Shown here: positions 1,490 through 58,429 of the stretch, one piece after another
Position numbering within the stretch: the stretch's first letter is position 1
Layout of the letters: each line of letters starts with the position of its first letter
Source of the DNA: a virus
Taxonomy: Duplodnaviria > Caudoviricetes
IMG/VR virus record: IMGVR_UViG_3300042256_000025
Reading direction: 5' to 3' (one strand)
Length of the DNA: 64,000 bases
Notes under the pieces: model-generated
Told to the model about the DNA's origin: nothing
Seen by the model: only the letters and a program-made list of their open reading frames with translations
The model's database searches: none
Made by a program: the position numbers and the translations under genes

Positions 1490-3907
1490 TTAGAAATTAA
1501 AGTCTAAATCGTCGGCACCGTCATCGCCGCCTGCGGTATCCTCACCCTCACCGTCACCCTCGGCGTCATCCGCAGCTGCATCTCCTTCGTCGAGTCCACC
1601 CTCGGTATCCCCAACAGCGTCATTCCCAGTATCCATTCCAGTACCATCTGTATTCGGATCACCACCCATGTCTGTGGGCTCTGGTTCAGGCTCTGCAGTC
1701 GCCTTATCGATCTTCTCACGAACCTTCTTCTCTTCCTTAAAGGTCTTCGCCAGTATATCGCCGAGTGCTTTAACCATGAAGGTGGTGTGGTCAGTGATGC
1801 GTTTAGAGGGCTTGTTGTCCTCATCATTAAAGAACTCATCCACTTCAACGAACAGGTTTTGACGGCGCATCCAATCCCGCTTCAGAGTACTGGCCACCGA
1901 TACCCGCATTGAATCCAGCGCACGGCTATTTACATCACCGTCCAGAAGCTCAGCAATCATGTCTTCTGTAATATACGCTTCAACAACACGATCAATGGCA
2001 TCCGAGTATTCCGAGTATGCCTCAAATTGACTGCCGATCTTAGCAAGGTCGGGGGATGGGAGCGATACACTCAGGCCCTCGATGAATTCACCCACTACAG
2101 TGTCAGCATCGCCTTTGGCTTTAACGGACTCTCGAATCTTCGTGAGTAGCTCACCGGAGGACCATACGTAGGTCTGAATAAAGTCCTGTAACTGTGTCTC
2201 GAACCAACGTTGGTAGTCCATGACCTGTTTAGCGAACATCAGGTTACGGGACACCACCACCGTAGCCAGTTCGCCCTCCATCGTACTGTCTACGATCTCA
2301 GGTGGAATACCCAGGCCACTGTACTGCATGCGTCTAAGGGTTTCCGATAACTGAGAGTCGGGCACGGTCCGTTGTCGCTCCCGGTCTTCGATCTCTGTAT
2401 TCGTGTTCGGGAAGGCCTCGCCACCGTCCACATTGATATCCACCGCGGCTTTCTGTAAGGAGCGTACAATATCACTGGGGTTCAGTATACCGATCGGGAG
2501 TTGGTTAGCCTGGAGGTTTGTGTACTGATGGAGGACCGCCTCGAGGGTACCCTGTGGATCATGGTCATCCTCATCCAGAGTTACATTCAAACGGGTACGC
2601 CCGACGGAGTTCTTAACGCCTGCCATCACCTCTGCAAAGAGGAGTACTGCCCGTAGACTACCAAAGACGCGGGTTTTCTCCAACAGACTAATGCCTAGCC
2701 CGTACTCATCATAATTAAATGCGAAGTAGGTCATGAGTTCTTTAGGGATATACACGATGCGGGTACGTTTTTGTGCTAACACACGCCCCAACATCAGTCG
2801 GTAGACTTCCTCAGGTCTGGAAACTTCAACTTCCTCCCCGTAGACACCGTCCTTAAGCTGATCGGTAAGCTCCTTTTCAATATAGTTAATGTACTGGTCA
2901 ATGAAGGTATCCGGATCTACCTTATTACCTTTCGTCGTACCCAGTGACAGACCTGTCGCTTGAATCAGCCCCCCTAGCGCCTGATTATTAGAAGCTTCCT
3001 TGATGCGCTCACGTAGACGACTGATTCCGGACTCGGTATCAGCCGTCATGGAGACCGGCATGCCATTCTCATTAACGGCGAGGTAGTACCCTAGGTGATC
3101 CCGTGGATCGCCGGGTACGTGGACGGGGATAATCGCTTCACTGGGTATCTTCATAACCAGCGGATTACGGGTCTCCTTACTACCCCCCTGTTTAGGGGTA
3201 AGTTTTACAACCGGCGCATGACGGTAGGCTTCCATTGATACTTTAGAGCGAATCGATTGGGTTAGCAGCTGACGTCGAACCGTATTAAGCTTCAGTGCAC
3301 TGAGGTTATCGGTGATCGTAAGGTTACCAATGTCCTTGTTCGCCTTGATAATGCCCACTGATTTAAGGTGAGCAGTGTCATCCCGCACGTACTGGTTGAA
3401 AGACTCCATCCCCCCGATTTTACCCTGTGCGATTAATGACTCAAGGGCTGTTTCAGGTATTACAGCTAGGGCATAACTACCTGTTTCAAACAGACAGTCT
3501 TCCAGTATCTTGGTTAGACGCTCTTCCAGTGGAAACGTTGTGCGGAAGTGCTCTTCGATGTAATCCAGTACCTCACTTCGCACTTCGTCGTCTAACTCAC
3601 CCTCATCTGAATGTAAACGTAACTGAACGGCCACTAGGTCCTTAGGGGAAAGGATTGAGGAGACCAGTATACGTTTTGCCAGTATTAGGTCTGGCAGTAG
3701 CTCCATCATCCCACGGTTATCAGAGATGCGTTCATTCACCCGATCCATCAGGGCCTTAAGATCACCCATCTTAGGCAAGACGTCTTGCAATCGACGACGA
3801 CGGTGTTCGTCCTCTACTATTACTTTAGAGGAGATACCTACCTTCCGGTCGACATCCGCCATATCCGCCGTGGTCTTTTGACCCTGTGCTGTTACTTTCT
3901 TAACCAT
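1490..3907 (-). CDS. Portal protein (phiKZ gp129-like)
   Basis: 805 aa; LVSSILSPKDL, IPVHVPGDP..HLGYY and LRAVLLFA motifs as recalled for this family; acidic C-terminal tail; synteny. Confidence 0.75.
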   Translation of the reverse strand: MVKKVTAQGQKTTADMADVDRKVGISSKVIVEDEHRRRRLQDVLPKMGDLKALMDRVNERISDNRGMMELLPDLILAKRILVSSILSPKDLVAVQLRLHSDEGELDDEVRSEVLDYIEEHFRTTFPLEERLTKILEDCLFETGSYALAVIPETALESLIAQGKIGGMESFNQYVRDDTAHLKSVGIIKANKDIGNLTITDNLSALKLNTVRRQLLTQSIRSKVSMEAYRHAPVVKLTPKQGGSKETRNPLVMKIPSEAIIPVHVPGDPRDHLGYYLAVNENGMPVSMTADTESGISRLRERIKEASNNQALGGLIQATGLSLGTTKGNKVDPDTFIDQYINYIEKELTDQLKDGVYGEEVEVSRPEEVYRLMLGRVLAQKRTRIVYIPKELMTYFAFNYDEYGLGISLLEKTRVFGSLRAVLLFAEVMAGVKNSVGRTRLNVTLDEDDHDPQGTLEAVLHQYTNLQANQLPIGILNPSDIVRSLQKAAVDINVDGGEAFPNTNTEIEDRERQRTVPDSQLSETLRRMQYSGLGIPPEIVDSTMEGELATVVVSRNLMFAKQVMDYQRWFETQLQDFIQTYVWSSGELLTKIRESVKAKGDADTVVGEFIEGLSVSLPSPDLAKIGSQFEAYSEYSDAIDRVVEAYITEDMIAELLDGDVNSRALDSMRVSVASTLKRDWMRRQNLFVEVDEFFNDEDNKPSKRITDHTTFMVKALGDILAKTFKEEKKVREKIDKATAEPEPEPTDMGGDPNTDGTGMDTGNDAVGDTEGGLDEGDAAADDAEGDGEGEDTAGGDDGADDLDFNF

Positions 3908-32608: not shown

Positions 32609-35464
32609 ATGGATACCTTACGTGAAAAGCTTCTACAGGAGCTGGATCAATACTACGCCAATCCAGGGTCCATTCAACAGGTTGCGTTGGATATACTCGA
32701 GGAGGCTGTGGATGGTAGCATCAACATCGTTGATCCATCTAGCCCATTTATGTTTTTACTAGAGGCCAGTGCAACCAATACCAGCACGGCTATTCTAAAG
32801 GCACAGTCGGTCATGCGCAGGCTCTACCCGATGCTTGCAACCAACTATGCAGAACTTTACCACCACATGGCGGATGAGGACTACTTAGATCGATTTGCAA
32901 CACCCAGTCGTACAACCCTCACACTGGTGGTACCCGTAGAGAGCGTCAAAACAGCCGCGGTTATGGATACACAAGCTGGGGTACGGCGTTTAACCATTCC
33001 AAAGGACACCGTTTTTCGTGTAGGGGGAATTGATTGGTTTGTTCACTATCCAATCGAAATTACGGTTACCCCAACCAACGTTATTCAGGTCAGCTACGAC
33101 CTTGCACCCTTTTCACCACTGTTACCCAAAGACGCTAACGCATTGGACTACCGTACCGTGCAGTCTGTCAATGGCGATGAGCTGGTTATCGATCTTCCGG
33201 TCGAACAGGTGTCTGTGGTTAGCCATACTACCCCCATGTCACCCTCGACAGGTTTCAGTGCCCTCTATCCGATTACGGATCAGTTTTACTATGTACGTGC
33301 CTATTGGCGTGAAGAGAGTGGTGCATGGAATGAAATGTCGACCACCCACACAGATCAGGTCTTTGATACAACTCGCCCTACAATGATCGTTAACGTAGAG
33401 GACCGTGCTGTTCGCTTAACCATCCCGGACATCTACACGACCCAAAATATGGTAGGGGACCATATTCGAGTTGACCTCTTTACGACTAAGGGTAAGGTTA
33501 ACATTGACCTGCAAGATTTTAGCTCGGCTGACTTCTCGGGTCGCTGGCAAGATCTGAATGGTACTAGTAGTACCTACGTTCAAGCCCTACAATCATTAAC
33601 TGACATTCAGCTATACGCGTTAGCCGATGTGGTGAGCGGTCGAGACGGCCTCTCCTTTGAGGCACTGCGGGATCGGGTAATTTATCGCAGTGCGGATAAG
33701 CGTGCCAGTATCACCTTTGAAGAACTGGCCTATGAGGTGCGTGATAAAGGATATACGCTGTCGAAGGCTAAAGACACCATTACCGAGCGACTATATACCT
33801 GTGCACGGCCTTTGCCTGCACCGGTTGATAACGCGGTGTCAACGCCCATTGGTGTTAAACATAGCCGTGTGGCCCTTTGGAGCGGCAACGGGCAATACAG
33901 TTATAGTTTAACCAGGAACGGTGACCGGGTAACGTTGACAAACCAGGCACTTTTACAGGAAGCCAATGGGACACTTTCCCTATTGAAGGATAGTGAACTG
34001 GATGCGTTAGCCGCACTGTCTCCCGATCAGTTAATTAGTCGATTGAATGAGGGTAACTTGTTCTACAACCCATTCTTCTACGTGGTTGAGTCGAATGTGG
34101 ATGTTTACCAAGCACGACCCTACTACCTGGATAACCCACGGAGCATAAACCGCAGCTTTATCGATAGTAACAAGTCGATCTGGTTTGCAGTCAATACCCG
34201 TCGGGTAGACTGTATGCGTGATGGCAACCAATATCACATTACGATGCGGGTGGATATTCCGAATGGGTTGACAGGTTTACATGGCCAGTTAACGGTTACG
34301 GACGTCAGTGGCCAGGAGTACCACGTACAGTCAGTAGAGACGACCTATGACAGTAAGGTCGCCTATGTACGATTTGTACTGGAGACATCCTTTGATGTGG
34401 ATGCCGATGATCGGATTGAAATCACGAATCTGAAAACCGAGAGCGGTGTAATATCAAATGTACTGGTTGACCTCGAAAGTGATGTAGAGGTATACTACTA
34501 TAAGGAGAGTAGCCTAACTGAAGTGACGGACTTCGATTACCGCATACATTCTACCTTAACCGGTAACTGGGTAGCGGCCACCCATGAGCGCCACCGCATA
34601 CGCTTAGGGGATAGTTTGGAGGGCCTTTCCTGTCGAGCAGAAGCCATTGTCTCTACGCCTATTTACCGTCGGTATGAAGAAGACGTTATTAAGCGCTATG
34701 CAGCGCCTGTCTATGAGCGTGACGATGAGGGCAATCTGGTATGGACGGTTGATGGAGTCACGGGTAAACCCGTGTTCAATATCCTTCACGAGGCGGGTGA
34801 CCCAGTGACAGATGATGAGGGTGCCCCTGTCCTACTCCACCGTGCCGGAGACGTCATGTTGGACAGCCTGGGTAAGCCAATCATCGATGAGCCAGCCGAC
34901 GTTATCTGGGAGTTGACAATGATGTCACTCGATGCCCGCTATCGCTATGCACAGAGTGCATCGGCGGAACGATACCGTAACTCGATAGGTCCACAGGTAC
35001 TCGCGTTCCTTACTCAGGACTTACGAGCGTTAGAACCTCGACTCATGGCCCGTACTGAGCTGGAATACCTGCCCAATGCATCGGTGGGCACCGCACTGGC
35101 CACCGTGGAGTCTAAGCAAGATGTGTTTTTGGATACGGCATTGGGCTTCACCATCAACTACATCATGTCGGAAGTCGGATACGCCGATAGTGCGTTACGC
35201 ACTCAGGTCGTTGAGGCTACACACGAGGCACTACGGGCCACGCTATATAAGCGCACCTTTTCTCTCTCTGAGTTAACCCGTGCACTTCAGGCGATAAGCG
35301 ATCACATCGTCAGTGTCTCCATCGAGAACCCCATCGATGGGTATAGCATGGCGAAGCTGGTGTCTGAGAACGCCTACTTCTCCTTGAGAGCAGAGTTGTA
35401 CCAGCGCACCAACGGCGTGTTGGATATCCGTGATGCGGTAGAAGTAAACTTCTTGTCCATATAA
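32609..35464 (+). CDS. Large baseplate-type structural protein (phiKZ gp87-like)
   Basis: 951 aa; DPSSPF.FLLE, YP.LA....LYHHM.D.DY, TTKG and F.ALRDRVI motifs. Confidence 0.7.
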   Translation: MDTLREKLLQELDQYYANPGSIQQVALDILEEAVDGSINIVDPSSPFMFLLEASATNTSTAILKAQSVMRRLYPMLATNYAELYHHMADEDYLDRFATPSRTTLTLVVPVESVKTAAVMDTQAGVRRLTIPKDTVFRVGGIDWFVHYPIEITVTPTNVIQVSYDLAPFSPLLPKDANALDYRTVQSVNGDELVIDLPVEQVSVVSHTTPMSPSTGFSALYPITDQFYYVRAYWREESGAWNEMSTTHTDQVFDTTRPTMIVNVEDRAVRLTIPDIYTTQNMVGDHIRVDLFTTKGKVNIDLQDFSSADFSGRWQDLNGTSSTYVQALQSLTDIQLYALADVVSGRDGLSFEALRDRVIYRSADKRASITFEELAYEVRDKGYTLSKAKDTITERLYTCARPLPAPVDNAVSTPIGVKHSRVALWSGNGQYSYSLTRNGDRVTLTNQALLQEANGTLSLLKDSELDALAALSPDQLISRLNEGNLFYNPFFYVVESNVDVYQARPYYLDNPRSINRSFIDSNKSIWFAVNTRRVDCMRDGNQYHITMRVDIPNGLTGLHGQLTVTDVSGQEYHVQSVETTYDSKVAYVRFVLETSFDVDADDRIEITNLKTESGVISNVLVDLESDVEVYYYKESSLTEVTDFDYRIHSTLTGNWVAATHERHRIRLGDSLEGLSCRAEAIVSTPIYRRYEEDVIKRYAAPVYERDDEGNLVWTVDGVTGKPVFNILHEAGDPVTDDEGAPVLLHRAGDVMLDSLGKPIIDEPADVIWELTMMSLDARYRYAQSASAERYRNSIGPQVLAFLTQDLRALEPRLMARTELEYLPNASVGTALATVESKQDVFLDTALGFTINYIMSEVGYADSALRTQVVEATHEALRATLYKRTFSLSELTRALQAISDHIVSVSIENPIDGYSMAKLVSENAYFSLRAELYQRTNGVLDIRDAVEVNFLSI

Positions 35465-35468
35465 GACA

Positions 35469-35498
35469 GCCCCCTACCCCCATAATGGGGGTAGGGGC
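35469..35498. terminator. Stem-loop between convergent genes
   Basis: CCCCTACCCCCA/TGGGGGTAGGGG inverted repeat. Confidence 0.7.
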
Positions 35499-38798: not shown

Positions 38799-38862
38799 GT
38801 TCTGTACCTCGATAGATTAAAGTTTAGCGGATGCCCCGATCGTTTGAATGAAAGGAGGATCC

Positions 38863-40199
38863 ATGGATATTGTAAGTAGAGCCTGTTTCTTTGCCCACTA
38901 TAGTGAGGCATCCGATAAGTCGAAAAACGACATGATTTTGATCAAAGAGCGTTTGAAGGATGCCGATGGTAACGAGCATCCAAACCTTCGCACTCTTTAT
39001 AATTTTGAACGGCCGTTCTATGTTACCCGGAAGGGGGCACAGACCCATCAGACTAAAAAGGAATACGAGACACTTGAGAATTTAAACGTCTACAGCAGTA
39101 CACAGGCCCGACTGCCGTTTGCAGTCGCACGTGTACTGGATGTGCACCATCCTCGACCTAGACTACGGCAACTGTCTAACAGTCCGTACCTCTATGGCAC
39201 AGATATTAAACCTGAGTCAATTATTAAACATCAGTACCGCACTAAGTACCCGATGTATCAACCCAAGGCGACAGTGGCCGCACTGGACTTTGAGACTAAT
39301 GTCTGGTCTGAGGATGAAGAGATTATCTCAGGGGCCGTTACGTTCAAAGACAAGGTTATTTACGTTGCCTCTGAGACACTGATGGGAAACGTACCTGATG
39401 CGGTGGCCCGTATTGAGGCTAACTTTGATAAGTATCTGGGACACTATCGAAAAGAGCGTAACATAAAGTTACATGTACGCATTGTTAATAATGACCTGGA
39501 AGTCGTATTGTTGCTTTTTAAGGCCCTACATAAGTGGCAGCCTGATTTTGTCTCCATCTGGAACATGTCGTTCGATATTAATAAGATCCTCGATACCTTA
39601 AAGCGCCACAACGTAGATCCCAAATATGTCTTCTCAGATCCCTCTGTCCCTGAAGTCTATAAACGCTTCAAATGGCGTGAGGATAATCCTCAGAAAACCA
39701 CGGCCACAGGGAAGACCACCAGCAAGCATATTGCAGACTACTGGCACGTAGTCGAGGCCCCTGCAAGCTTCTATATCATTGACTCGATGTGCTATTTCAA
39801 GCGTAACCGTGTCATGGAGGGCGCTCGACACAGCTACTCCTTAGATGCCATCCTAACCGAGGAACTTGGGCTAACGAAATTCAAGTTACCGGAAGCCGAT
39901 CAGTATGAAGGGCTAGAGTGGCACCAAGTAATGCAGCGAGACTTTAAGATCGAGTACGCAACATACAACATCTTCGACTGCATTGCGTTGGAGCTATTGG
40001 ACGAAAAGACCAACGACATCAGTAAGGCTCTGCCGGCTGCAGCGGGCATCTCCCCGATTGAGGACATCGCTTCTGGTCCCCGTAACCTAGCGAATAACCT
40101 TCATTTTTTCCTAGAAGAGCAGGGTAAAATAATTTGCTCCACTGGGGAAACCATGCGGGAGGACTATGACGGGGATACTATTCCCATGACGGGGTGGAT
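38863..40199 (+). CDS. Family-B DNA polymerase subunit (phiKZ gp82-like, 3'-5' exonuclease domain), exon 1
   Basis: ExoI LDFET, ExoII WNMSFDI and ExoIII YNIFDC; AAGGAGG SD; ends ...GW-AT at the splice site. Confidence 0.85.
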
Positions 40200-41611
40200 C
40201 AACTAAAAAGTGTTAAATAGTGACTCTTCATATTCTATATTGGCGAATATGAGGTCACTATAATGTCTGTAATAAATGAGAAAGAGTTCAAACCTATACC
40301 TGGATACAGTCGATACCTATTGGCTAAGGATGGCCGCATCTACGATACTCTAAAAGAGCGTGAAAAGAGCTGGTACATTATCAACAGAGGTAATCCAAAA
40401 AAGAATATCAAGGGCGGTTATTACGGCACTAGGTTATATAACGATGCTGGTGTACTAGTTACGCTGCAGCGTCATAGGGCACTCTGCCTTACGTATAAAG
40501 AGCGACCGGATAAACGTGGTAACTACATTGTCAATCACATTGACGGTGTGCCTGGCAATGACAGCCTTGATAATTTAGAATGGGTAACCTACTCTGAAAA
40601 CACACAGCACGCTTACGATAATGGCCTGTATCCTAATAAGGTTAGACCCGTTATATGGAGAGACCTCGACGGCATAGATCGCCGGTACCCATCTGTTGCT
40701 AAGTTAGCCAGGGCAACGGGGTTCACGGAAGATAGGGTGCGCTCTAGATTGATGCGCACAAGTGGGAAGATCTACGAAGACGGTTTCTCGTTCAAATGGG
40801 ACGATGATAGTGAGTGGACGCTAGATGGTTCACCCTGTAAGGCTAGACTAGCAAAACGAGCTATAGTGGCGCGTGACATATTCACGGGTACCAAATATAT
40901 CTTTAGGTCAGCTAGGCAAGCCGCTCACCATATAGGGGTAACTGGCAAGGCCATACTTGAGCACCTTAAAAATGGGTCGGGAATTATACCGATTGCGGGC
41001 TATAACGTCCAATGTCTAGATAATTTAAACCCATGGCCAGCTCACTCTGATCGACATCTAGCCATTTATAGGGCACAGCCTTATAAGCCAGACCACGGTA
41101 TCGTAGCTAAAGACAGTTCAGGTAAAGAGCTCTTTTTCGAAACCAAGGCACTGGCCGCCAATTACTTCGGCATATCCGAAGAGAGTATTGCACGTAGATG
41201 TAAGAAGAGACTCACTATAGGCGACCACTCCTTCTATTATTATAGACTTGATGAACACTTAGGTCCCCCTATCCAGTAATGGATAGGTGATAATGCATCT
41301 AATTGCTGGGACGTCTTGTTAGGTCACTGCACCACGGGTACGGGGAAACCACGTATCTACGGTTTGAAAAGCAGTGGATAGAGATAATCAGCAGCGAAGT
41401 CCCTAAGGACTGTCGGGAGACAGGCTAGGGGAAACGTTCAACGACCAACCGCGACAGCGGTGTAGGGCCCAAGCGGGTGGGTTTATCCCTTAAATCGAAA
41501 TGGTGCACTTCCTACCTGATAGAGGAAGAAGATATGGTCTGGTCCCTGCGGAGACGTAGGGCGGGTGTCAGAGCACACCGGCTACAGAGTCGCGTCTGTA
41601 GTGGACAAACG
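40200..41611 (+). mobile_element. Group I self-splicing intron (1412 nt) carrying an HNH gene in the P1 loop
   Basis: Exon ends in U, intron ends in G; P (41301), Q (41386), R (41436) and S (41529) elements; P7 GACCA/TGGTC; splicing restores GWI-VTLPSEL in frame. Confidence 0.9.
40263..41279 (+). CDS. Intron-encoded NUMOD4-HNH homing endonuclease with NUMOD1-like HTH repeats
   Basis: FKPIPGYSRY, HR and VNHIDGVPGNDSLDNLEWVTYSENTQHA. Confidence 0.9.
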   Translation: MSVINEKEFKPIPGYSRYLLAKDGRIYDTLKEREKSWYIINRGNPKKNIKGGYYGTRLYNDAGVLVTLQRHRALCLTYKERPDKRGNYIVNHIDGVPGNDSLDNLEWVTYSENTQHAYDNGLYPNKVRPVIWRDLDGIDRRYPSVAKLARATGFTEDRVRSRLMRTSGKIYEDGFSFKWDDDSEWTLDGSPCKARLAKRAIVARDIFTGTKYIFRSARQAAHHIGVTGKAILEHLKNGSGIIPIAGYNVQCLDNLNPWPAHSDRHLAIYRAQPYKPDHGIVAKDSSGKELFFETKALAANYFGISEESIARRCKKRLTIGDHSFYYYRLDEHLGPPIQ

Positions 41612-41948
41612 CGTTACGCTCCCCTCTGAGTTAAACGTCGCTAAAGGGTATCCGTTTATCTCAGACATGGAAAATATCCCCTCCCGCATCTATACGCAAA
41701 TCTTTGATATTGACATCGCATCCGGGTATCCAACCTCAGGGGTAATTGCTAACATCTCAAAAGAAACCTGCCTGCGTGAAATTTGTGGGATTATGGGGCT
41801 GGACCGTAAAGAAGGACAAGACCTTCTACGCGTCACAGGCGTTAACATGACCGCCACCCGTACCAATGCCATTGAGCTCGCTCAGAGTCTCTATATGGCC
41901 CCTCCGATGGAGGACGTCTTGGCTAACTTTATGAGGGATTGCAGTTAA
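41612..41948 (+). CDS. DNA polymerase subunit, exon 2 (spliced product about 557 aa)
   Basis: VTLPS and DIDIASGYPT (PolB motif A-like DxxSxYP). Confidence 0.85.
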
Positions 41949-46591: not shown

Positions 46592-46945
46592 CTATAGGGG
46601 TAAGGGGATATCCATGTAGGCTTTATAGTGCTCTATATCCGATAGATGCAATGCCTGAACCTGTAGTCGTCCATACTCCTCTGTCATTAATCCCCATAAC
46701 TCCATAGGGGTATAGTGCTCTACTACCCCTATATAGGGCTCTGGTAAGGCCTCGACTGAAGGCACAGAGTTAAAGTGAGGGTAGTCTACAGTCAACATGC
46801 GAAGGTACTCAAACACCTTATCCCGATAAATGGCTACCCCAGTAGAGGACTCTGGCCAAGCGACGGCTTCAAAGACACTACGCTGCACGTACATCGTAGA
46901 CTTGAGCCTTAGCTGTATTGCATCAATCTCTTCATAGGGCAGCAT
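46592..46945 (-). CDS. Hypothetical protein coupled to the upstream HNH gene
   Basis: 14-nt overlap with 46932-48761. Confidence 0.6.
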   Translation of the reverse strand: MLPYEEIDAIQLRLKSTMYVQRSVFEAVAWPESSTGVAIYRDKVFEYLRMLTVDYPHFNSVPSVEALPEPYIGVVEHYTPMELWGLMTEEYGRLQVQALHLSDIEHYKAYMDIPLPL

Positions 46946-48761
46946 TATTCTGTTTCTCCATATACTCAGTATAGGGGTATGGCTTATAGCCCGCTACACA
47001 CTCACCCCGCCTAAACCATCTAGACGCGTCTGTCTTATTCATCCCCACTACCTCACCGGCTGCTTTCTTCGTCGGATAGACGCTCACCTCACCCGATTCC
47101 ATATGCACTAAAACCGCACGCGTATCACTCTCACGCATGTACGCTAATGCCTCCTCTCGACTCGGCCACTCTACTCCACTATCCGTATATCGAAATACGT
47201 AGCCATTCATAACGTGGGTATTCTTTCGACGCAAATAGCTCTGAATACTCGCCCGACTCATCCCTAACTCCTTCGCAATCTCCGTATGTCCCTCTGCACT
47301 AATAACCTTGTCCTCCACTACATTCCACGCCTCTACCCTATGGCTTCTATTCTTAGCGAGCTCTTTAGGATTTACAATCAAATCCATACGAGGCCAAGGC
47401 TCATCCAGGTATATAAAGATGTGAGTCTTCTGCCAAGGATAAAGCTCTCGGCGCTCTAGCATACCCCAGAGTGTAGACTTATCAATCCCTAGTTGACGAC
47501 TGCACTCTAACGCACTCTCGTACACGGAGACACTGCCGTTGCGAATGTCCAGTGCCTTTACAGGACGTAAGTTACCATTACTTAGAGAATAGAAGTGCGC
47601 GTGCTCTATATTCTCGCCCTGCGTAACCCACTCTAGGTTGACGTACCGGTTATCGTCTCGGATAAGGTTAATGTGGTTAACATGAGTTTGACCCTCATGG
47701 TCAGGTTGTTTAAACGCACTGGCTACAATGCGGTGTACCCCTACCGTGCCCTTTGCGCCGGTTCTAGAGTTAAAGGTATGGACCGTCTTATAGCCATTTA
47801 TGACAGATTGTGCCTTTACCTTTCCGGTGTTTATGTCAACGACCGACTTGCCATCTGAAGAGACGACTACCCATGGATACATATCCGAAACGTAATGCCC
47901 AGGATAGTCTTTAGATTCTACCGGTTCCTTATACTGGTGAAACATTATCTCACGCGGCGTAGCCAGTCCCTCATTCTCACCGTCCCCTACCGCAGCCGCC
48001 ATTCGTTGAAATTGCATTAGCCGATCGGCTTCACTTGCCCTAGGGGACTTCGACCAATATAGATTCTCAGGTACGACGTTCAAGGGGTTACCATCAATGG
48101 GATGTACGTACACATGTGTTTCTGGTGCATCGTTAAACACATAGGCTTCAGCCACTAGTCTAAGTACGTCGATTGCCCTGCCCTGCTTTAACTCCGAATC
48201 ATAATACGTAACCCTTAACCGTTGTCCATTTTTAACTGGTGTCAACAGCTTGCCTGTCTTAAGGTTAACGATCTTACTGCCATCCCGACTAACCGCTAGA
48301 AAAGATGGGTTCTGCGCACACTGGTATCCCTCATAGCCTTCTGGCGAGGGACTAACCAAAATGCGGTGGCGGTTAACGTCATATCCTACATCCCGTCGCA
48401 CTAAAGTAACGTTCTGTTTATTGACATACTTGTTGTTAGCCCCCCACCGTAAATTAGTTAACCCGTAGTCCGCTGTATCGCCATTAATGTACGTTACCAT
48501 CGACCCCTCATGTGGCGCTTGAGGCAATAGTGTCGATGCGACTATTTTACCGACAGAACACATCCGCTTCTTCTTGTAGTCAGCGTCATAGGTGAATACA
48601 TAGTACCGACCATCCGTCACACTAATAGGTAGCTCAGTGTGATCATCTCTCCGTATAATAGACCCTGATTTAGAAACATACACCTCCGGATATACCTTTG
48701 ACTGATAGTACCCCTCTACCGGTGCCGGGGAGCCATTCCGTATAATCGACTTTTTACTCAT
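46932..48761 (-). CDS. Free-standing HNH endonuclease with three NUMOD4/HNH modules (two degenerate) and C-terminal HTH repeats
   Basis: Module 3 has VHRIVA...VNHINLIRDDNRYVNLEWVTQGENIEHA; modules 1 and 2 lack key His/Asn residues. Confidence 0.85.
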   Translation of the reverse strand: MSKKSIIRNGSPAPVEGYYQSKVYPEVYVSKSGSIIRRDDHTELPISVTDGRYYVFTYDADYKKKRMCSVGKIVASTLLPQAPHEGSMVTYINGDTADYGLTNLRWGANNKYVNKQNVTLVRRDVGYDVNRHRILVSPSPEGYEGYQCAQNPSFLAVSRDGSKIVNLKTGKLLTPVKNGQRLRVTYYDSELKQGRAIDVLRLVAEAYVFNDAPETHVYVHPIDGNPLNVVPENLYWSKSPRASEADRLMQFQRMAAAVGDGENEGLATPREIMFHQYKEPVESKDYPGHYVSDMYPWVVVSSDGKSVVDINTGKVKAQSVINGYKTVHTFNSRTGAKGTVGVHRIVASAFKQPDHEGQTHVNHINLIRDDNRYVNLEWVTQGENIEHAHFYSLSNGNLRPVKALDIRNGSVSVYESALECSRQLGIDKSTLWGMLERRELYPWQKTHIFIYLDEPWPRMDLIVNPKELAKNRSHRVEAWNVVEDKVISAEGHTEIAKELGMSRASIQSYLRRKNTHVMNGYVFRYTDSGVEWPSREEALAYMRESDTRAVLVHMESGEVSVYPTKKAAGEVVGMNKTDASRWFRRGECVAGYKPYPYTEYMEKQNNAAL

Positions 48762-48878: not shown

Positions 48879-50141
48879 TTAAGTCAATGAATTCAGATAG
48901 TCATACTTACGAGTCTCTAGTCTATTGCCGTGCATCATAGCTAGGAAGGATTGGAGTATAGCGCTACCTACGGCAGAGGCTTGTGGACCTAGTCCGATTT
49001 TGGAGTCGGTTACAAGCTTACCCATACAGACACCACAGAAGTTACCATGGTCAGTATGGCAGGTCATAGGGCTACGGATAGTAATGGTTTTACCCACCAG
49101 GTTGTCGAGTTCGCCCGCCTCTATCGGGATAAGATCTTTACCTTTAAATCGGTAACGTCCTACAAACTTATCTTTGTTGTATTCCGTAACCGGGAAGGTG
49201 ATGCCCACAGTAGACCCACAGTCGTCTTCAACCAATTTCGTGTTCTGGAAGATACGGGCTGAGAACTTAGCCGCTTCACCCCCCAGTGCGGTAGAGGCAC
49301 CACGGTTATAGGAACCCATACGTAGTGAGTTGACCATCATGGGGAGATGTTTCATATCCCACCCTTCACGCAGTGATGGAATGGCCAGCTCATACTTAGA
49401 GGGATCCTCCAGTGTAGGCTCACCCCCGAACATAATGTGGGTGCGCTTTAGGGATACCTCCATATCCTTAGGCTTAAGCATGAACTCATTAATGTCATCG
49501 CCTTCCAGATATGTGCGGTAGTAGTCTACGAGTTCGGCTTCTACCTTGGCAATGATAGCAGGGTCATGAAGTTGACCCTTATACTTCTCGAGTACCGCTT
49601 GTCGCCGTTCGGCCATATCGCTGGGTGGGATAATGGCCTTACGGGTAGCAGAGGGTACCACGGCATTCGCTAGGGCCGTCATCATCGAGATGGCTCGAGT
49701 AAAGGCACGATACTGTTCTACGGTAACGGTCTTCTCGGTTAGGGCCTTAGCGACCAGCTTATCGATATATTTACCGTTTAAGCGTTGGTTCTGATACGGA
49801 ATCGCATCGGTAAACGCGTATTCGAAAACGATAAGGTTTGTAAGCAGAGTAGAGTAGTAGGTCTCTACAGATTCCTTAACAATCGGGAAGATACCTGGAG
49901 GCACCGTAATAGGTTCCCTGTAGTTAAACAGGGGCGAGCCTTGGATATAGCCATCAATGATGGTGGCGTCCCCGTCCTCGTTTACTGTATAAGCTGCACC
50001 GTCTGCGATGTAGAAGTCGCCGATTTCTCGGTGTTTATTTAAAGGGGTTTCACCTACAATGGCAAAGGCCCTGAGGAGCCAATGGCGCTTGTAAATAAAG
50101 CGGTGGCGGTATGCCAGTACAAAATACTCAAACAGGGTCAT
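48879..50141 (-). CDS. Virion RNA polymerase beta' subunit fragment (phiKZ gp80-like)
   Basis: R.GSYNRG..TALGG, EDDCG, RSPMTC......C..CMG and MHG motifs. Confidence 0.85.
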   Translation of the reverse strand: MTLFEYFVLAYRHRFIYKRHWLLRAFAIVGETPLNKHREIGDFYIADGAAYTVNEDGDATIIDGYIQGSPLFNYREPITVPPGIFPIVKESVETYYSTLLTNLIVFEYAFTDAIPYQNQRLNGKYIDKLVAKALTEKTVTVEQYRAFTRAISMMTALANAVVPSATRKAIIPPSDMAERRQAVLEKYKGQLHDPAIIAKVEAELVDYYRTYLEGDDINEFMLKPKDMEVSLKRTHIMFGGEPTLEDPSKYELAIPSLREGWDMKHLPMMVNSLRMGSYNRGASTALGGEAAKFSARIFQNTKLVEDDCGSTVGITFPVTEYNKDKFVGRYRFKGKDLIPIEAGELDNLVGKTITIRSPMTCHTDHGNFCGVCMGKLVTDSKIGLGPQASAVGSAILQSFLAMMHGNRLETRKYDYLNSLT

Positions 50142-53766: not shown

Positions 53767-54378
53767 TTATGCAAGCTCAAGGTGGTCTAACAGCGCCCGT
53801 GTAAAGTAGGCGCGTTCCAGTGGATCTGGAAGGTGTACTTCGATAGCATGTACATTGAAATCGCTAAAGGGAACTGGATGGGTGCCCACGGTTTGCATCA
53901 GGTCATCCACGTTCTCAAACAACTCTACTAACGTACCGTTATTGTCAACGTAATGGGTACAGTCATCCGCCGTAATCGTTAGGGAGGAGGCCGGTTCCAA
54001 TGGCTTACGTTTACTGGCATCTACCCATATTTCAAAGTCATGAGCTTTATTAGCCTTAGAGGCGTTCAGCTCATCTATGTTTCGAAGACCACAGTAAATA
54101 TCGTGCTCTTCGAAAATCTCTCTGGAGACACGGTCTAGGTGCTCCCCATTGTACTCGACGATCAGGTCAAACCACTCCTTACGGTGGTTACCTCGATCCG
54201 CGTAGCATTCCTCTACAGTGGTATATCCATAGAGGGGGGCAAGTCTGTCAAAGATAAACCGCCGACATACAAATAAGGAGGAGGACTCGTATTGCAGTCC
54301 GTAGACTACGGTGAGGTACAGGGAGACGGTGTCCTTCCCATGCCGCGCATTACCGCACACCATCCATTTCAATGACAT
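53767..54378 (-). CDS. Deoxynucleoside monophosphate kinase (P-loop)
   Basis: GNARHGKDTV Walker A, GLRN..E and DNNGT motifs; TGATG coupling with clpP. Confidence 0.75.
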   Translation of the reverse strand: MSLKWMVCGNARHGKDTVSLYLTVVYGLQYESSSLFVCRRFIFDRLAPLYGYTTVEECYADRGNHRKEWFDLIVEYNGEHLDRVSREIFEEHDIYCGLRNIDELNASKANKAHDFEIWVDASKRKPLEPASSLTITADDCTHYVDNNGTLVELFENVDDLMQTVGTHPVPFSDFNVHAIEVHLPDPLERAYFTRALLDHLELA

Positions 54379-54887
54379 CAATAATCCTCAAGCTGATAAT
54401 TATGCTGCACCACCTCATCAATCAGTCCTAACGATAGTGCCTCTTCCGCAGTTAGGTAATGATCAGTCTCACAGTAGGCTGCAATTTCAGACTCACTGCG
54501 ATTGCATCGATCGGCGATGTGCTTGGATAAGGTATCCTTAATATAGTTCATGTACTCCAGGCGAGGCGCCATTATAGCGCTGGTACCTCTGGGCTGATGT
54601 ATCATGATCTCAGTATTCACGGTGGCGTATCGCTTACCCGGTTGACCTGAACACAGTAACAGTGCACCCGCTGAAGCGGCTAGACCGATTGAAAGAGTAT
54701 AGACTGGGGACTCGATCGCCTCCATTGTATCGACAATGGAACGTGCCACTGCAACATCGCCACCCGGACTATTAATCAACATCACAATAGGGGCGACTAC
54801 AGTGGACTCTAGTTCCCGCAAAGCTTCTAAAATCTTACGGCCCATTTTACGCTCTATTACGCCTTCGACTACAACGACTCTAGCCAT
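54378..54887 (-). CDS. clpP: ClpP-family serine protease with intact catalytic triad
   Basis: INSPGGDV, GLAASAG (Ser), MIHQP (His), TDHYLTAEEA..LGLID (Asp); GGAGG SD before ATG 54887. Confidence 0.9.
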   Translation of the reverse strand: MARVVVVEGVIERKMGRKILEALRELESTVVAPIVMLINSPGGDVAVARSIVDTMEAIESPVYTLSIGLAASAGALLLCSGQPGKRYATVNTEIMIHQPRGTSAIMAPRLEYMNYIKDTLSKHIADRCNRSESEIAAYCETDHYLTAEEALSLGLIDEVVQHNYQLEDY

Positions 54888-55368
54888 GAACGTACCCTCC
54901 GAACATACCCAACTCAATCGCCTGCTGTGCGGTCATGTATTCATGGCGATCACAGCGTGCGCGAATGTCAGTTGCCTCTAGACGAGTCACAGCGGCTATG
55001 ATGGCGGTAATGCGCTCCTCTACACGAATAACCTGTTCGCCGGTGGCTGTAATGTCGGTGGCTGTGCCAGCCGCATATTGGGTCTGGCGTACAAAGTGTA
55101 CAATAGTGGAAGGCATGCAGCGACGCTTTTCGACGGGCAGTGCCGCCAATACCACTGCAAAGTGTACCGGCATATCGTAGAGTACCTCGACCTGCATATC
55201 CAGCTTACCTGCAAACAGATCGATGGTGTCATGAATACCTAGTAGCTCAGAGTCCCCTAGAAACACTGTATCAAATTGCAGTGTCAGAGGAATCTCTTTA
55301 TTCTTCTCTAGGTGGGCCAGTAACTCTAGGTATAGTTGGCCTACCGACTTAACCAGTATAACTTTCAC
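54880..55368 (-). CDS. ClpP-like pseudoprotease (ClpR-like; triad lost)
   Basis: KRRCMPST, GTATDI and CDRHEYMTAQQAIELG retain the ClpP pattern; Ser, His and Asp positions are substituted. Confidence 0.7.
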   Translation of the reverse strand: MKVILVKSVGQLYLELLAHLEKNKEIPLTLQFDTVFLGDSELLGIHDTIDLFAGKLDMQVEVLYDMPVHFAVVLAALPVEKRRCMPSTIVHFVRQTQYAAGTATDITATGEQVIRVEERITAIIAAVTRLEATDIRARCDRHEYMTAQQAIELGMFGGYVHG

Positions 55369-55432
55369 AGGGTGCTCCTTATTTTAAAGGTCGTATCAAT
55401 AGGATTTGCCAACCCTACCAGACAAAAAAAAA

Positions 55433-55456
55433 ATAAGGAGGGGTGAACCTCCTTAT
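55433..55456 (-). terminator. Terminator after the orphan helicase end
   Basis: ATAAGGAGG/CCTCCTTAT stem with an A-run at about 55424-55433. Confidence 0.7.
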
Positions 55457-55618
55457 CTAAACGACAACGTTTGTTGGCATGTCACCAATGGAGGCACACT
55501 TACCGGAAAACTGTTCTCGCTTACGCGCATCATACTCTCGGTGCTGCTGGATATCCAGACAAGTTAACCAATAGTAGACGGGCGCAATATGGGGATATTT
55601 CTTTATAGGTCTTAGACG
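55457..55618 (-). pseudogene. Orphan duplicate of the SF2 helicase's last 53 codons plus stop
   Basis: 52/53 aa identical to 56456-56617; 19 nt differences, 16 codons changed synonymously. Confidence 0.9.
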
Positions 55619-55628
55619 GTAAGGAGGG

Positions 55629-56447
55629 CTATTTAGATCTGCACCTGTATAATGAGGTATCCCTCTTAACTTTTTCATCACTAGGGAGGGGCAGTCTAGG
55701 GTCAAATAACCATTTACCGTTAACAACGCCATTATATTCATTATCAATCGCCTTTCTGGCTAAATACTTGCTACAGCCACTATTTAACACCGCCGCTGCG
55801 ATTGTCTGATAAATAGTTTTGGTGCCAGTCGCAACATCCACTACGCCGATAGATCTATTTTTAGTTAACACGCCATATGTAACGTTTGGCCAGGGTTCTG
55901 ATGGGTTAGCGTCCCTAACAAGATATCTACCGTCCACACACTTTAAGGTGGTCCCAATAGCTGCCTTTATCCTGCCCCTCTTGATAGATAGTGTCCTTTC
56001 CGCATCGACGATTGTGTCAAACGCATGTACGGTACCATCTAGTAGGTCTTTAACTTCTACAGGTCTAAGTGTTCTATGTGTATACCCTAGGTCTGTGATT
56101 GAATGGCGTACATTCGCGCTGTGCGACACCCACTCTAGGTTGCAATATGAGTTGTTTTGTTTATCGCCATCCTTATGGTTGACTTCAGCTGACTCAAATT
56201 TACCATTAGGGTTAAACACGTCCATTATAATGTGATGTACTAGTACCGTACGGTCTTTCTTTCTAACCGCATCGTAGGTTTTAAACCCTAAATACCCCGT
56301 GTTAAACGGTGTACCTCGAGTGATTTTACCTAATTGATATTTAGCTAGTTTTACAAGCCTACCGTCAAGAGAACCCGCTACCTCGGGAAACCTCTCAGAT
56401 AGAAAAAAGCCAGGATATGGACTCTCTCTAGGTACGTAGTTGACCAT
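55629..56447 (-). CDS. Free-standing HNH homing endonuclease
   Basis: LVHHII and VNHKDGDKQNNSYCNLEWVSHSANVRHS, then HTH repeats; AGGAGG SD overlaps the helicase stop. Confidence 0.9.
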   Translation of the reverse strand: MVNYVPRESPYPGFFLSERFPEVAGSLDGRLVKLAKYQLGKITRGTPFNTGYLGFKTYDAVRKKDRTVLVHHIIMDVFNPNGKFESAEVNHKDGDKQNNSYCNLEWVSHSANVRHSITDLGYTHRTLRPVEVKDLLDGTVHAFDTIVDAERTLSIKRGRIKAAIGTTLKCVDGRYLVRDANPSEPWPNVTYGVLTKNRSIGVVDVATGTKTIYQTIAAAVLNSGCSKYLARKAIDNEYNGVVNGKWLFDPRLPLPSDEKVKRDTSLYRCRSK

Positions 56448-56455
56448 AGAACCTC

Positions 56456-58429
56456 CTATACAACTACATTTGTCGGCATGTCCCCAATAGAGGCACATTT
56501 ACCGGAAAACTGTTCTCGCTTACGTACATCATACTCTCGGTGCTGTTGGATGTCCAGACAGGTTAACCAGTAGTAGACGGGCGCAATATGTGGGTATTTC
56601 TTTATGGGGCGTAGACGCCCTAATAATTGAAGGTTACGCTGCACCGAGCCAATGGCCACGGTACTGATACAGGCCCTTAGGTTAGGAATATCCTTACCGG
56701 TACCGGCTGAGGTTGGTGTACTGACTATAATGTCGTTTGTGTACAATACTTCTGGAGCATAGGTCGCCGTATAGGCTGAGGTTTTAAACTGTGGATAGAG
56801 TTTACTCAGTCTATTAGCCAGTCGCTCACACATCTCAGTGGTTGCACAGAAAATCAGTAACTTCTGCTCATCCTGGTAGTCTGAGACGAATGCCTGCTCT
56901 GCTAGACTTTCTATGAACTCATAGTAGCGCGTCTCCGCTGTACGATTCGCCATTAGCCACTGCTCATAGGTAACATGACTGTATCCCTTAGTGCCAGTAC
57001 ATTTCACCTTATCCGGATGTTCGAGTCGATAGGTTACAGATATGCACTTTGCGTGCTCATTCTGACTTACGTCTTTAAAGCGGTCCTCCATAGGAAATAT
57101 TTTAAGGTATTGGTTGTTGATCTTCTCATCCTCCGACACCAGTGTCGCAGATAGGTAGATGGCCCTACGTACATGCGTGAAGGTGGTGGCGGTTACGAGT
57201 GCATGGATATTCTCATGTGACTCATCCACGATCCGCATACCCACCCCTAACGTAGGGAATAACTCATAGGGTGTCACACCCTCTATTGTGTACCCCTCTG
57301 TAAGGTAGTCCTTGAGAAAGGCCCGGATAGTAGCAATGGAGATAAAAATGAGCTTATACTCATTCTGTCCGGCTAATGATAACTTAACCAGATTCACCAA
57401 ATGCTCACGCCCCTGTATCACACAGATATCCTTAGCGTGATCAATATCCAGTACCCACTTCGTGGAGTCTATCCACGTTTTAAAATGACCCGAGGCCATA
57501 ACAAATGCCGTGCGTACTTTATAGTGCGCCGTTGTCATTAGTCCACAGGCGGTGTTGTGTGTCACGATGAAGTCATCCGTGACGTAGAGGTGGGATGGGT
57601 GTGATACCTCTATACACTGGACCTCATCCGCCCCTACATACTGAACGTCGATAACCCTAGACATTTCCAAATAGTCACTATCTGGAACATGTATGGGCAA
57701 ATACTGCTCACGACCGTTCTCCACCCGATCCTTGATGATTGCTGTTGTTAGCACCTCACCCGTTAACCCTTTCTCCATGGTATACCAGAGATGTTCAGCG
57801 TCAGCGGTTGACTGTCGTCCATCCTCTAGGGTGATGCAGTATACTGGTCGTACGCCCTGTGGATAGACACCCACAACCACACCTTCACCACCATCGGGTC
57901 CGCTAATGGGGTCCCCTACACTAAGGTCTCCCATTTTGACCCAGCCATGGGGTGTTAACACCTGTGAGGAAAGCGGCTGTGCCTTCCCAAAGCCAGTAGG
58001 AAGGTTTAGTACACGGTTAATGGCCTTACCTTCCTTCATGAAGGCCATGGCCAGTTCCTGTTCCTCATTGCGAGGCCCTACTCCCTTCTGCAACGCTATC
58101 TCGATGGGTGCTCCTTCAATGGGCTCGTGGTACGTGTATTGAAAGTCACTACTAGTGTACCCTAGTACCCTTAGATACTCCTCAACCTTTGTAAACTCCG
58201 CTTTCAGAAATCCAAACTCTTTACGGTCGTGCGTAGCCGTTGCAAAAACGGCCTTGGTTTTCTTAACCCGACGCTTAAGCTTTGGAATCCAGACGGTTTC
58301 AAAGATCGCCAGTCGCTCACAGTACTTAAGGATGGCTTCTCGTTCATTCGGGTAATGCACCTGAATACGTACGCCATGACTGTAGACGTCTACTTTAAAC
58401 TTAACCATTCTACCTCCCATGACAGCCAT
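56456..58429 (-). CDS. SF2 DExH helicase (phiKZ gp75-like) containing a mini-intein
   Basis: PTGFGK|T, DESH, LSAT, AGTG.DIPNL and QLLGRLR motifs. Confidence 0.9.
   Translation of the reverse strand: MAVMGGRMVKFKVDVYSHGVRIQVHYPNEREAILKYCERLAIFETVWIPKLKRRVKKTKAVFATATHDRKEFGFLKAEFTKVEEYLRVLGYTSSDFQYTYHEPIEGAPIEIALQKGVGPRNEEQELAMAFMKEGKAINRVLNLPTGFGKAQPLSSQVLTPHGWVKMGDLSVGDPISGPDGGEGVVVGVYPQGVRPVYCITLEDGRQSTADAEHLWYTMEKGLTGEVLTTAIIKDRVENGREQYLPIHVPDSDYLEMSRVIDVQYVGADEVQCIEVSHPSHLYVTDDFIVTHNTACGLMTTAHYKVRTAFVMASGHFKTWIDSTKWVLDIDHAKDICVIQGREHLVNLVKLSLAGQNEYKLIFISIATIRAFLKDYLTEGYTIEGVTPYELFPTLGVGMRIVDESHENIHALVTATTFTHVRRAIYLSATLVSEDEKINNQYLKIFPMEDRFKDVSQNEHAKCISVTYRLEHPDKVKCTGTKGYSHVTYEQWLMANRTAETRYYEFIESLAEQAFVSDYQDEQKLLIFCATTEMCERLANRLSKLYPQFKTSAYTATYAPEVLYTNDIIVSTPTSAGTGKDIPNLRACISTVAIGSVQRNLQLLGRLRPIKKYPHIAPVYYWLTCLDIQQHREYDVRKREQFSGKCASIGDMPTNVVV
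57554..57982 (-). mobile_element. Class-3 mini-intein (143 aa, no endonuclease) in the helicase Walker A
   Basis: Starts AQPLSSQVLTPHGW; HLW, VQCIEV and FIVTHN|T give the W-C-T signature. Confidence 0.9.

Follow-up and report, generated by a model that had tools for sequence, protein, structure and literature searches.

A helicase gene end and a free-standing HNH endonuclease gene as a candidate splicing-free homing cassette in a phage genome

In a 64,000-nt stretch of the virus record IMGVR_UViG_3300042256_000025 (Duplodnaviria; Caudoviricetes), hereafter the window, the gene for an SF2 helicase ends in a 53-codon tail of foreign origin, which is directly followed by a free-standing HNH endonuclease gene and then by a second, orphan copy of the same tail. 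The orphan is the native end of the helicase gene, displaced by a recent insertion and still present downstream in the form found in relatives that lack the endonuclease. We read this arrangement as a mobile, splicing-free homing cassette resembling the WHO elements of yeast, in which the foreign helicase tail and an I-HmuI-type HNH gene would travel as one unit, and we put the probability of this reading at roughly 0.6. All genes at the locus lie on the minus strand, coordinates are those of the window, and the positions of the features are collected in Table 1.

An initial annotation, made from the letters of the window alone, had described the last 53 helicase codons as present in two copies with the HNH gene between them, and all of its observational statements hold. 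An ungapped comparison returned exactly the divergence it had given, with 19 nucleotide differences distributed over 17 codons, 16 of them changed synonymously and the remaining one exchanging V and A. Homology between the copies has its exact limit at GGG|CGT, the codons for G|R in the QLLGRLRP sequence of motif VI (the bar marks the boundary), again as claimed, and on the native side it begins at 55618. The Q..GR.R signature at this point is invariant in 25 homologues, down to ~25% identity. The patch of foreign sequence in the working gene reaches beyond the duplication, extending 15 nt upstream of its boundary into the LQLL codons. The duplication was also recovered by self-BLAST of the genome, and chance is ruled out as its source because this is the sole self-matching pair of flanks among the five HNH loci of the genome; no flank duplication was seen at the other four. 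The HNH Shine-Dalgarno sequence overlaps the helicase stop codon in the way that had been described (TAGGAGG, then 4 nt, then ATG). The orphan begins 10 nt past the HNH stop codon, so its frame is shifted relative to that of the HNH gene, and it has no Shine-Dalgarno sequence of its own.

The gene that received the insertion is an essential helicase gene of a jumbo phage, kept working by its replacement end. Its product matches the phrog_16 DNA helicase profile at 8.5e-29, despite having no Pfam match at E ≤ 0.01, and homologues at ~35% identity in deposited phages correspond to the annotated helicase of phiKZ-like jumbo phages. Alignment with the 25 homologues displays the Walker A motif, motif V (GTGKD) and motif VI (Q..GR.R) expected of an SF2 helicase, the Walker A sequence PTGFGK|T being regained when a mini-intein, described below, is removed.

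Insertion is supported by a precise empty site. The 198,546-bp contig L007, from JGI sample 3300042257, carries the helicase gene, then a terminator, then a pair of ClpP genes, and has no HNH gene. Its helicase end joins QLLG directly and is identical to the orphan at all 162 of 162 nt, the outcome that had been predicted for HNH-free relatives, while it differs from the carried tail at 19 of 162. Over the 7.97 kb compared, L007 and the window have 25 mismatches, 24 of them synonymous, and all fall in the last 177 nt of the helicase gene (56456–56632); there are 0 differences in ~4.8 kb upstream and in 3162 nt downstream. The proposal that a unit of tail plus HNH gene displaced the previous 3′ end is thus borne out by the native end of L007, and the insertion is recent, as had also been proposed, given an orphan with no change in 162 nt and flanks with none in ~8 kb. 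At the protein level, the L007 helicase differs from that of the window (P0001) only at the V/A residue.

Two short contigs are 100% identical to the window, namely L003 (1217 nt), from the same sample as L007, and L004 (1074 nt), a Logan contig, and both span the upstream helicase, the carried tail, the HNH gene and the junction into the orphan. The version in the window is therefore natural, its occupied junctions being reproduced in independent assemblies, and since L003 and L007 come from one sample, both states are present in it. The HNH-free layout recurs in four more lineages (L005/L006, L008, L010 and the more distant L001/L002, which also lack the intein), so that with the isogenic L007 five lineages are without the HNH gene. 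Among deposited phages, megablast gave no match, and tblastn with the tail returned 262 phage records; none has more than a single copy, and the duplication is thus seen in no deposited phage with this helicase. Scans of viral contigs, metagenome contigs and related loci, which possibly did not cover near-identical records, found no further copies.

Of 177 nt, 25 distinguish the carried tail from the native allele, while the HNH-free lineages are separated from that allele by 20 of 177 nt and, upstream, by ~64 of 600 nt; a divergence of this size is typical between lineages. The carried tail is closest to L008 and L010, with 18–19 differences. Calling it recoded, as the initial annotation did, was therefore an overstatement: most of its motif VI codons (CTT CAA ... 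CGC CCC) are shared with the HNH-free L008 and L010, and only TTA TTA and CCA are unique to it, on which ground we rejected purpose-made recoding at motif VI. The synonymous-only pattern instead reflects ordinary purifying selection on two functional alleles, with no special recoding, in keeping with the suggestion that both tails derive from functional alleles; the carried tail is an ordinary natural allele of foreign origin. The G+C content of the HNH gene, 43.0% against 49.2% for the genome, likewise points to import. Tandem duplication in situ followed by divergence was also rejected, since the orphan is the empty allele and the carried copy holds all 25 changes, with none elsewhere in ~8 kb.

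A third state of the locus is found in G000, a 195,544-bp virus contig that is the genome record offered for the window. It differs from the window at 17 positions, all within 56525–56632, with the HNH gene and the orphan unchanged; these positions are native-type in G000, so its two tail copies differ at only 8 nt. The working gene of G000, which encodes the same helicase protein (P0091) as L007, keeps the native type across LQLLG|RLRP and the following 93 nt, and is foreign-type after a switch that lies inside a 26-nt identical run (56499–56524). The window and G000 appear to be two records of one phage population, and the simplest origin for G000 would be a crossover between an occupied and an empty genome. 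The helicase protein of the window is itself on record on a 199,512-bp contig.

Two haplotypes at the same locus could also arise if one were a chimeric assembly of two strains, and the orphan could in principle be expressed, either spliced on or as a gene of its own, given that a 96-aa TTG-start open reading frame (ORF; 55457–55747) spans it. We give these explanations very little credence. Identical junctions occur in three independent assemblies, and the junction from HNH gene to orphan is present in no HNH-free genome, so that it could not have been built from their reads. A chimeric G000 assembly would presumably need k-mers of ≤26, as the switch lies in a run shorter than the k-mers usual in assembly, and G000 is a poor fit to a polishing artefact because, by estimated aligner scores, the orphan would be the better match for native-type reads that extend 93 nt into the tail. 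Expression of the orphan is disfavoured by its frame, by its missing Shine-Dalgarno sequence and by the lack of any matching intron model.

Perfect repeats between the tail copies reach 119 nt in G000 and at most 26 nt in the window. If G000 is real, its 119-nt repeat should drop the HNH gene by direct-repeat recombination and restore the empty site exactly; the short repeats of the window thus suggest that divergence of the tail may also stabilise the cassette.

The endonuclease is a member of the HNH_3 / I-HmuI-like family, with an N-terminal HNH (ββα-metal) motif containing the catalytic His and Asn. It scores 34.6 bits against Pfam HNH_3 (cut-off 24.8), and its residues 129–164 match NUMOD1 at 23.7 bits (cut-off 22.8), which supplies a C-terminal DNA-binding module; no domain is assigned to residues 165–272. 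Alignment with I-HmuI (1U3E; E 1e-4) preserves the catalytic DHKDG..NN..N, with (D/N)HKDG, NN and the final N all aligned, and the ORF, the Shine-Dalgarno sequence and a hairpin at its start are intact. The enzyme, a monomeric one of the I-HmuI type, is probably a nickase. It is rare, occurring on 3 contigs in the protein collection; a search of 5.8 billion proteins found no close homologue and only two weak ones, and a search for the donor lineage failed. The gene is no intein, being a separate ORF that starts past the helicase stop codon. It is also not encoded by a group I intron: the helicase ORF is complete without splicing, and the Rfam library, which detects Intron_gpI at 41240–41561 (78.5 bits) beside another HNH gene in the window, has no intron match at E ≤ 1 over 55200–56900, in agreement with the earlier description of the element as splicing-free.

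That second HNH gene (HNH_3/NUMOD1; 40263–41279) lies with the intron core between the two parts of a split DNA polymerase gene (phrog_3011; 38848–41948, plus strand), whose exon 1 (38848–40206) covers profile positions 7–462 and exon 2 (41565–41948) positions 459–567, the classic I-HmuI-like arrangement. Sequences 70–90% alike are found downstream of three HNH paralogues, at positions 2766–3096, 35259–35479, 138035–138096 and 142586–142914 of genome C1; the copy at C1:35259–35479 corresponds to 41387–41607 of the window and overlaps the group I intron match, and the remaining C1 copies may mark further introns outside the window. A further HNH-containing ORF of 609 aa (46932–48761, minus strand) lies just past the gene for an RNA polymerase beta subunit (48879–50141) and has no flank duplication. 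It has a strong HNH_3/NUMOD match at residues 296–587 and a weaker HNH-like match near its N-terminus, and may represent two fused endonuclease genes.

At the helicase locus, alignment with empty sites revealed remnants of a terminator on both sides of the HNH gene. The empty-site terminator reads TAG ATAAGGAGGTTC ACC CCTCCTTA TTTT; the copy behind the orphan in the window is a strong intrinsic terminator, with an 11-bp stem followed by a T run (−14.2 kcal/mol, z-score −3.95), and it is conserved in all HNH-free lineages. The occupied form has GGAGGTTC before the HNH ATG and CCCTCCTTA after the HNH stop codon, and the latter 9-mer is the 3′ arm of the terminator in all HNH-free alleles except L001/L002, where only CCTCCTTA is common. 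By this alignment, the HNH ORF occupies what was the loop of the helicase terminator hairpin in an ancestor, and this position accounts for the CCCTCCTTAC that follows the HNH stop codon. The initial annotation had located this sequence correctly; it had proposed pairing with the HNH Shine-Dalgarno sequence or with the 5′ arm of the downstream terminator, and the sequence is now best read as the 3′ arm of the ancestral terminator. The two arms flanking the HNH gene thus indicate that tail and HNH gene were already neighbours in the donor.

Among the changes found only in the carried tail are four at third codon positions, one in each of its last four codons. Three of them create Watson-Crick pairs with HNH codons 3–6 in a predicted hairpin (−12.7 kcal/mol, z-score −2.05; folds as stable arose in 9 of 200 shuffles), within which the HNH AUG and some of its Shine-Dalgarno sequence are enclosed. 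Nuclease start sites covered by RNA hairpins have reportedly been seen in work on T4 mobE and I-TevI. From the predicted fold, we suggest that the hairpin may couple translation of the nuclease to that of the helicase or restrain it, and that tail and HNH gene may have co-evolved as a unit.

The exact placement of the ORF in a terminator loop would also suit an ordinary intergenic, free-standing homing endonuclease whose target lies elsewhere, whether near the stop codon and terminator, at a distance, or in other lineages. Its flanks would have been co-converted over varying tracts, one illegitimate recombination would have duplicated 162 nt, and the orphan would be an accidental scar with no working part, its G|R boundary a coincidence. 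In line with this, the window and G000 resemble long and short co-conversion tracts that both keep 45 nt beside the HNH gene, and the last four codons and the terminator are conserved in every HNH-free lineage and changed in the carried copy. Free-standing T4 endonucleases also co-convert from distant cut sites, at least as SegG is cited in PMC10448857. This account is the main rival, but we consider it less likely than the homing cassette. A target at the helicase stop codon or terminator would leave neither genome immune, because both haplotypes still have such a site, undamaged, downstream of the orphan, and the four unique changes in the last codons are explained otherwise, by the hairpin; both points weaken such a target as a candidate. 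In addition, a random junction would be unlikely to fall within ~24 nt of motif VI in a gene of 1974 nt.

Under the homing-cassette reading, events would have started in a donor lineage with insertion of the HNH ORF into the loop of the helicase terminator, the 5′ arm becoming its Shine-Dalgarno sequence and the old 3′ arm persisting as the 9-mer behind it. The last helicase codons and the HNH start would then have co-evolved into the hairpin, with HNH translation depending on ribosomes that finish the helicase. A mixed infection would have brought the cassette into the present lineage, where a break at or beside the motif VI codons GGG|CGT of the resident helicase would have been repaired from the donor. 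On the left side, homologous recombination would have brought in foreign sequence to a distance of at least 15 nt upstream of the break; on the right side, an illegitimate join of the terminator arm of the cassette to the broken end would have created the first orphan, and the native tail would as a result survive, untranslated, behind the HNH gene. In later rounds of homing, an empty allele would be broken, its left end would recombine within the helicase, its right end would pair with the orphan, and the gap would be filled by tail and HNH gene. Because the homology of the orphan starts at the break, the unit could home into empty alleles as yeast WHO elements do. We place the break at G|R because the sole native-allele sequence missing from the genome of the window is the stretch spanning LQLLG|RLRP, in an invariant motif. 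Codons of conserved motifs are a known kind of target for homing endonucleases. That the HNH enzyme makes the break, that it cuts at this position and that the carried copy resists it are points we infer.

Several observations weigh against this scheme. The sharing of most motif VI codons of the carried tail with HNH-free L008 and L010 speaks against a purpose-made resistance code. No stretch of the empty allele up to ~90 nt is missing from G000, which also has an intact HNH gene; if this haplotype is real, lethal double-strand cutting of the empty allele would be hard to sustain, and the native-type motif VI of G000 beside the HNH gene argues against a simple story of resistance by recoding. 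Two circumstances alone would reconcile G000 with homing: the enzyme could be a nickase that the phage tolerates, by analogy with I-HmuI, or G000 could be a transient form. The HNH protein has no close relatives of known target, which leaves its part in cleavage presumptive, and the first orphan requires a one-off illegitimate join.

The tolerance of every native-allele sequence in G000 would also be expected if the nuclease were inactive or aimed at competitors, with tail and HNH gene carried in passively by recombination during co-infection and kept by drift or through harm to other phages. The rarity of the HNH gene would suit such a history, and an intron endonuclease of the jumbo phage PhiPA3 is reported to act in phage–phage competition (PMC11620839). 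We regard passive carriage as improbable, since the catalytic motif is intact, as are the ORF, its Shine-Dalgarno sequence and the putative regulatory hairpin, and since an isogenic background contains both occupied and empty forms, the state to be expected of a spreading element.

Table 1. Features of the helicase–HNH locus, in window coordinates.
Feature	Position	Strand	Basis
Helicase gene, SF2, chimallivirus 'RAD2/SF2 helicase' family, 657 aa, intact hybrid gene	56456–58429	−	ORF; phrog_16 match
Carried in-frame tail, 53 codons + stop, beginning at R of motif VI	56456–56617	−	Ungapped copy comparison
Foreign ('X') allele patch, LQLL codons + carried tail	56456–56632	−	25 mismatches to L007
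Terminator 5′ arm remnant GGAGGTTC, now HNH Shine-Dalgarno sequence, overlapping helicase stop	56449–56456	−	Alignment with empty-site terminator TAGATAAGGAGGTTCACCCCTCCTTATTTT
Predicted hairpin, last helicase codons + HNH codons 3–6	56434–56469	−	RNA fold
HNH_3/NUMOD1 endonuclease gene, free-standing, 272 aa	55629–56447	−	ORF, Pfam, 1U3E alignment
Terminator 3′ arm remnant CCCTCCTTA + one C; right cassette edge, illegitimate junction	55619–55628	−	Terminator alignment
Orphan, displaced native ('Y') helicase tail, HNH frame not kept	55457–55618	−	162/162 vs L007
Native intrinsic terminator of the helicase operon, now behind the orphan	55421–55458	−	Stem + fold

The helicase gene contains another mobile element. 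Residues 150–292 (57554–57982, minus strand) are a 143-aa mini-intein in the Walker A loop (PTGFGK|AQPLSS...FIVTHN|TACGL), which matches the gp41-1 and DnaB mini-inteins at E 3e-13 and is missing from P0003, a 507-aa relative with 91% identity. It starts with Ala and, by eye, has a Trp two residues past the block B His, a Cys in VQCIEV and a terminal THN, so that it looks like a class 3 intein. Among more distant helicase homologues, longer proteins have LAGLIDADG_3 matches. Helicase divergence among L006, L007, L008 and L010 is patchy, with peaks beside the intein site (−1709 to −1530 and −1079 to −990 from the stop codon), and the otherwise close L006, L008 and L010 have an extra peak over motif VI and the tail (−179 to 0); this pattern would fit repeated allele exchange around the sites of selfish elements. 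Directly downstream of the helicase operon terminator, an overlapping pair of ClpP-fold genes (54378–55368, minus strand) is kept in all related contigs.

The closest parallels to the cassette come from outside phages. In yeast, WHO elements exchange the 3′ end of FBA1 for one that they carry, and the former end persists as a fragment beginning where the gene was cut (Coughlan et al. 2020, PMC7282813; Osborne et al. 2026, bioRxiv 10.64898/2026.08.13.744650). Both they and the present locus combine an endonuclease gene with an alternative 3′ part of an essential host gene and replace that 3′ end without splicing, and in both the displaced end begins at the cleavage position, which in the phage is presumed by analogy; for WHO elements, that end has been proposed to act as the right-hand homology arm (PMC7282813). 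Carried and native ends are ~15% apart in WHO elements (PMC7282813) and 12–14% apart in the phage, between alleles that are otherwise nearly identical. The nucleases differ, being HNH_3/NUMOD1 in the phage and LAGLIDADG/zinc-finger in WHO elements, as do the hosts, a phage versus diploid yeast. The phage also has a single element where WHO elements form a cluster, its cassette has terminator hairpin remnants, and the phage has a recombinant, G000, in which a native-type target region and the nuclease gene occur together.

Fungal mitochondrial mORFs likewise form hybrid genes, as in atp6 of Allomyces macrogynus and in atp6, atp9, cox2 and nad3 of Glomus (PMC3630166). There too, a foreign C-terminus and an endonuclease ORF are followed by a native C-terminus that is (near) identical to that of a close relative, and the inserted C-terminus is divergent in nucleotides and conserved in protein (PMC3630166). 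In contrast to the phage arrangement, mORFs reside in organelle genomes and encode enzymes of the LAGLIDADG or GIY-YIG type, commonly as in-frame fusions with the host gene; the phage HNH gene is a separate ORF with its own Shine-Dalgarno sequence, and its empty and occupied forms are isogenic and come from the same sample.

Among phages, intronless homing by T4 SegF, SegG and MobE (PMC2988022; ICP1 survey, PMC10448857) similarly involves free-standing nucleases between or beside essential genes, which spread with co-converted flanks over tracts of variable length. In that process the recipient sequence is replaced, whereas the present phage retains its native end, and the phage homing literature searched yielded nothing describing a host-gene end that is duplicated and kept. 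I-HmuI of Bacillus phage SPO1 (PDB 1U3E) is the best solved relative of the nuclease domain and shares its HNH_3 plus NUMOD layout; it differs in being encoded by a group I intron, while the phage gene has no detected intron, and identity is low outside the ~55-aa HNH core. I-HmuI nicks DNA and is tolerated by its own genome, and both I-HmuI and I-HmuII also cut intron-plus DNA (PMC3428280). On these comparisons, the cassette would be an HNH-based phage version of the gene-end-replacing homing elements whose layout is known from yeast and fungal mitochondria.

We tentatively go one step further and suggest that phages may possess a self-contained cleave-and-rescue cassette, a third category of homing that has so far been described only in yeasts. 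It would consist of an HNH nickase and a replacement gene end, with the stranded end serving as right homology arm, divergence guarding against loss through the direct repeat, and G000 as a natural intermediate that could excise precisely and so make invasion reversible.

The genome combines three strategies, with a tail cassette and a mini-intein in the same helicase gene and a group I intron with an HNH gene in the DNA polymerase gene. To our knowledge, homing endonucleases are thought to survive in essential genes only by means of introns, inteins or an intergenic position; the locus described here would represent a third solution in a phage, which is to bring a spare gene end. Because the genomes showing the empty, the occupied and the recombinant state are otherwise the same at every base compared, the steps of the invasion are directly testable. 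Such cassettes would account for local patches in which the ends of phage core genes are highly divergent at synonymous positions, and they would be natural models for 'cleave-and-rescue' gene drives.

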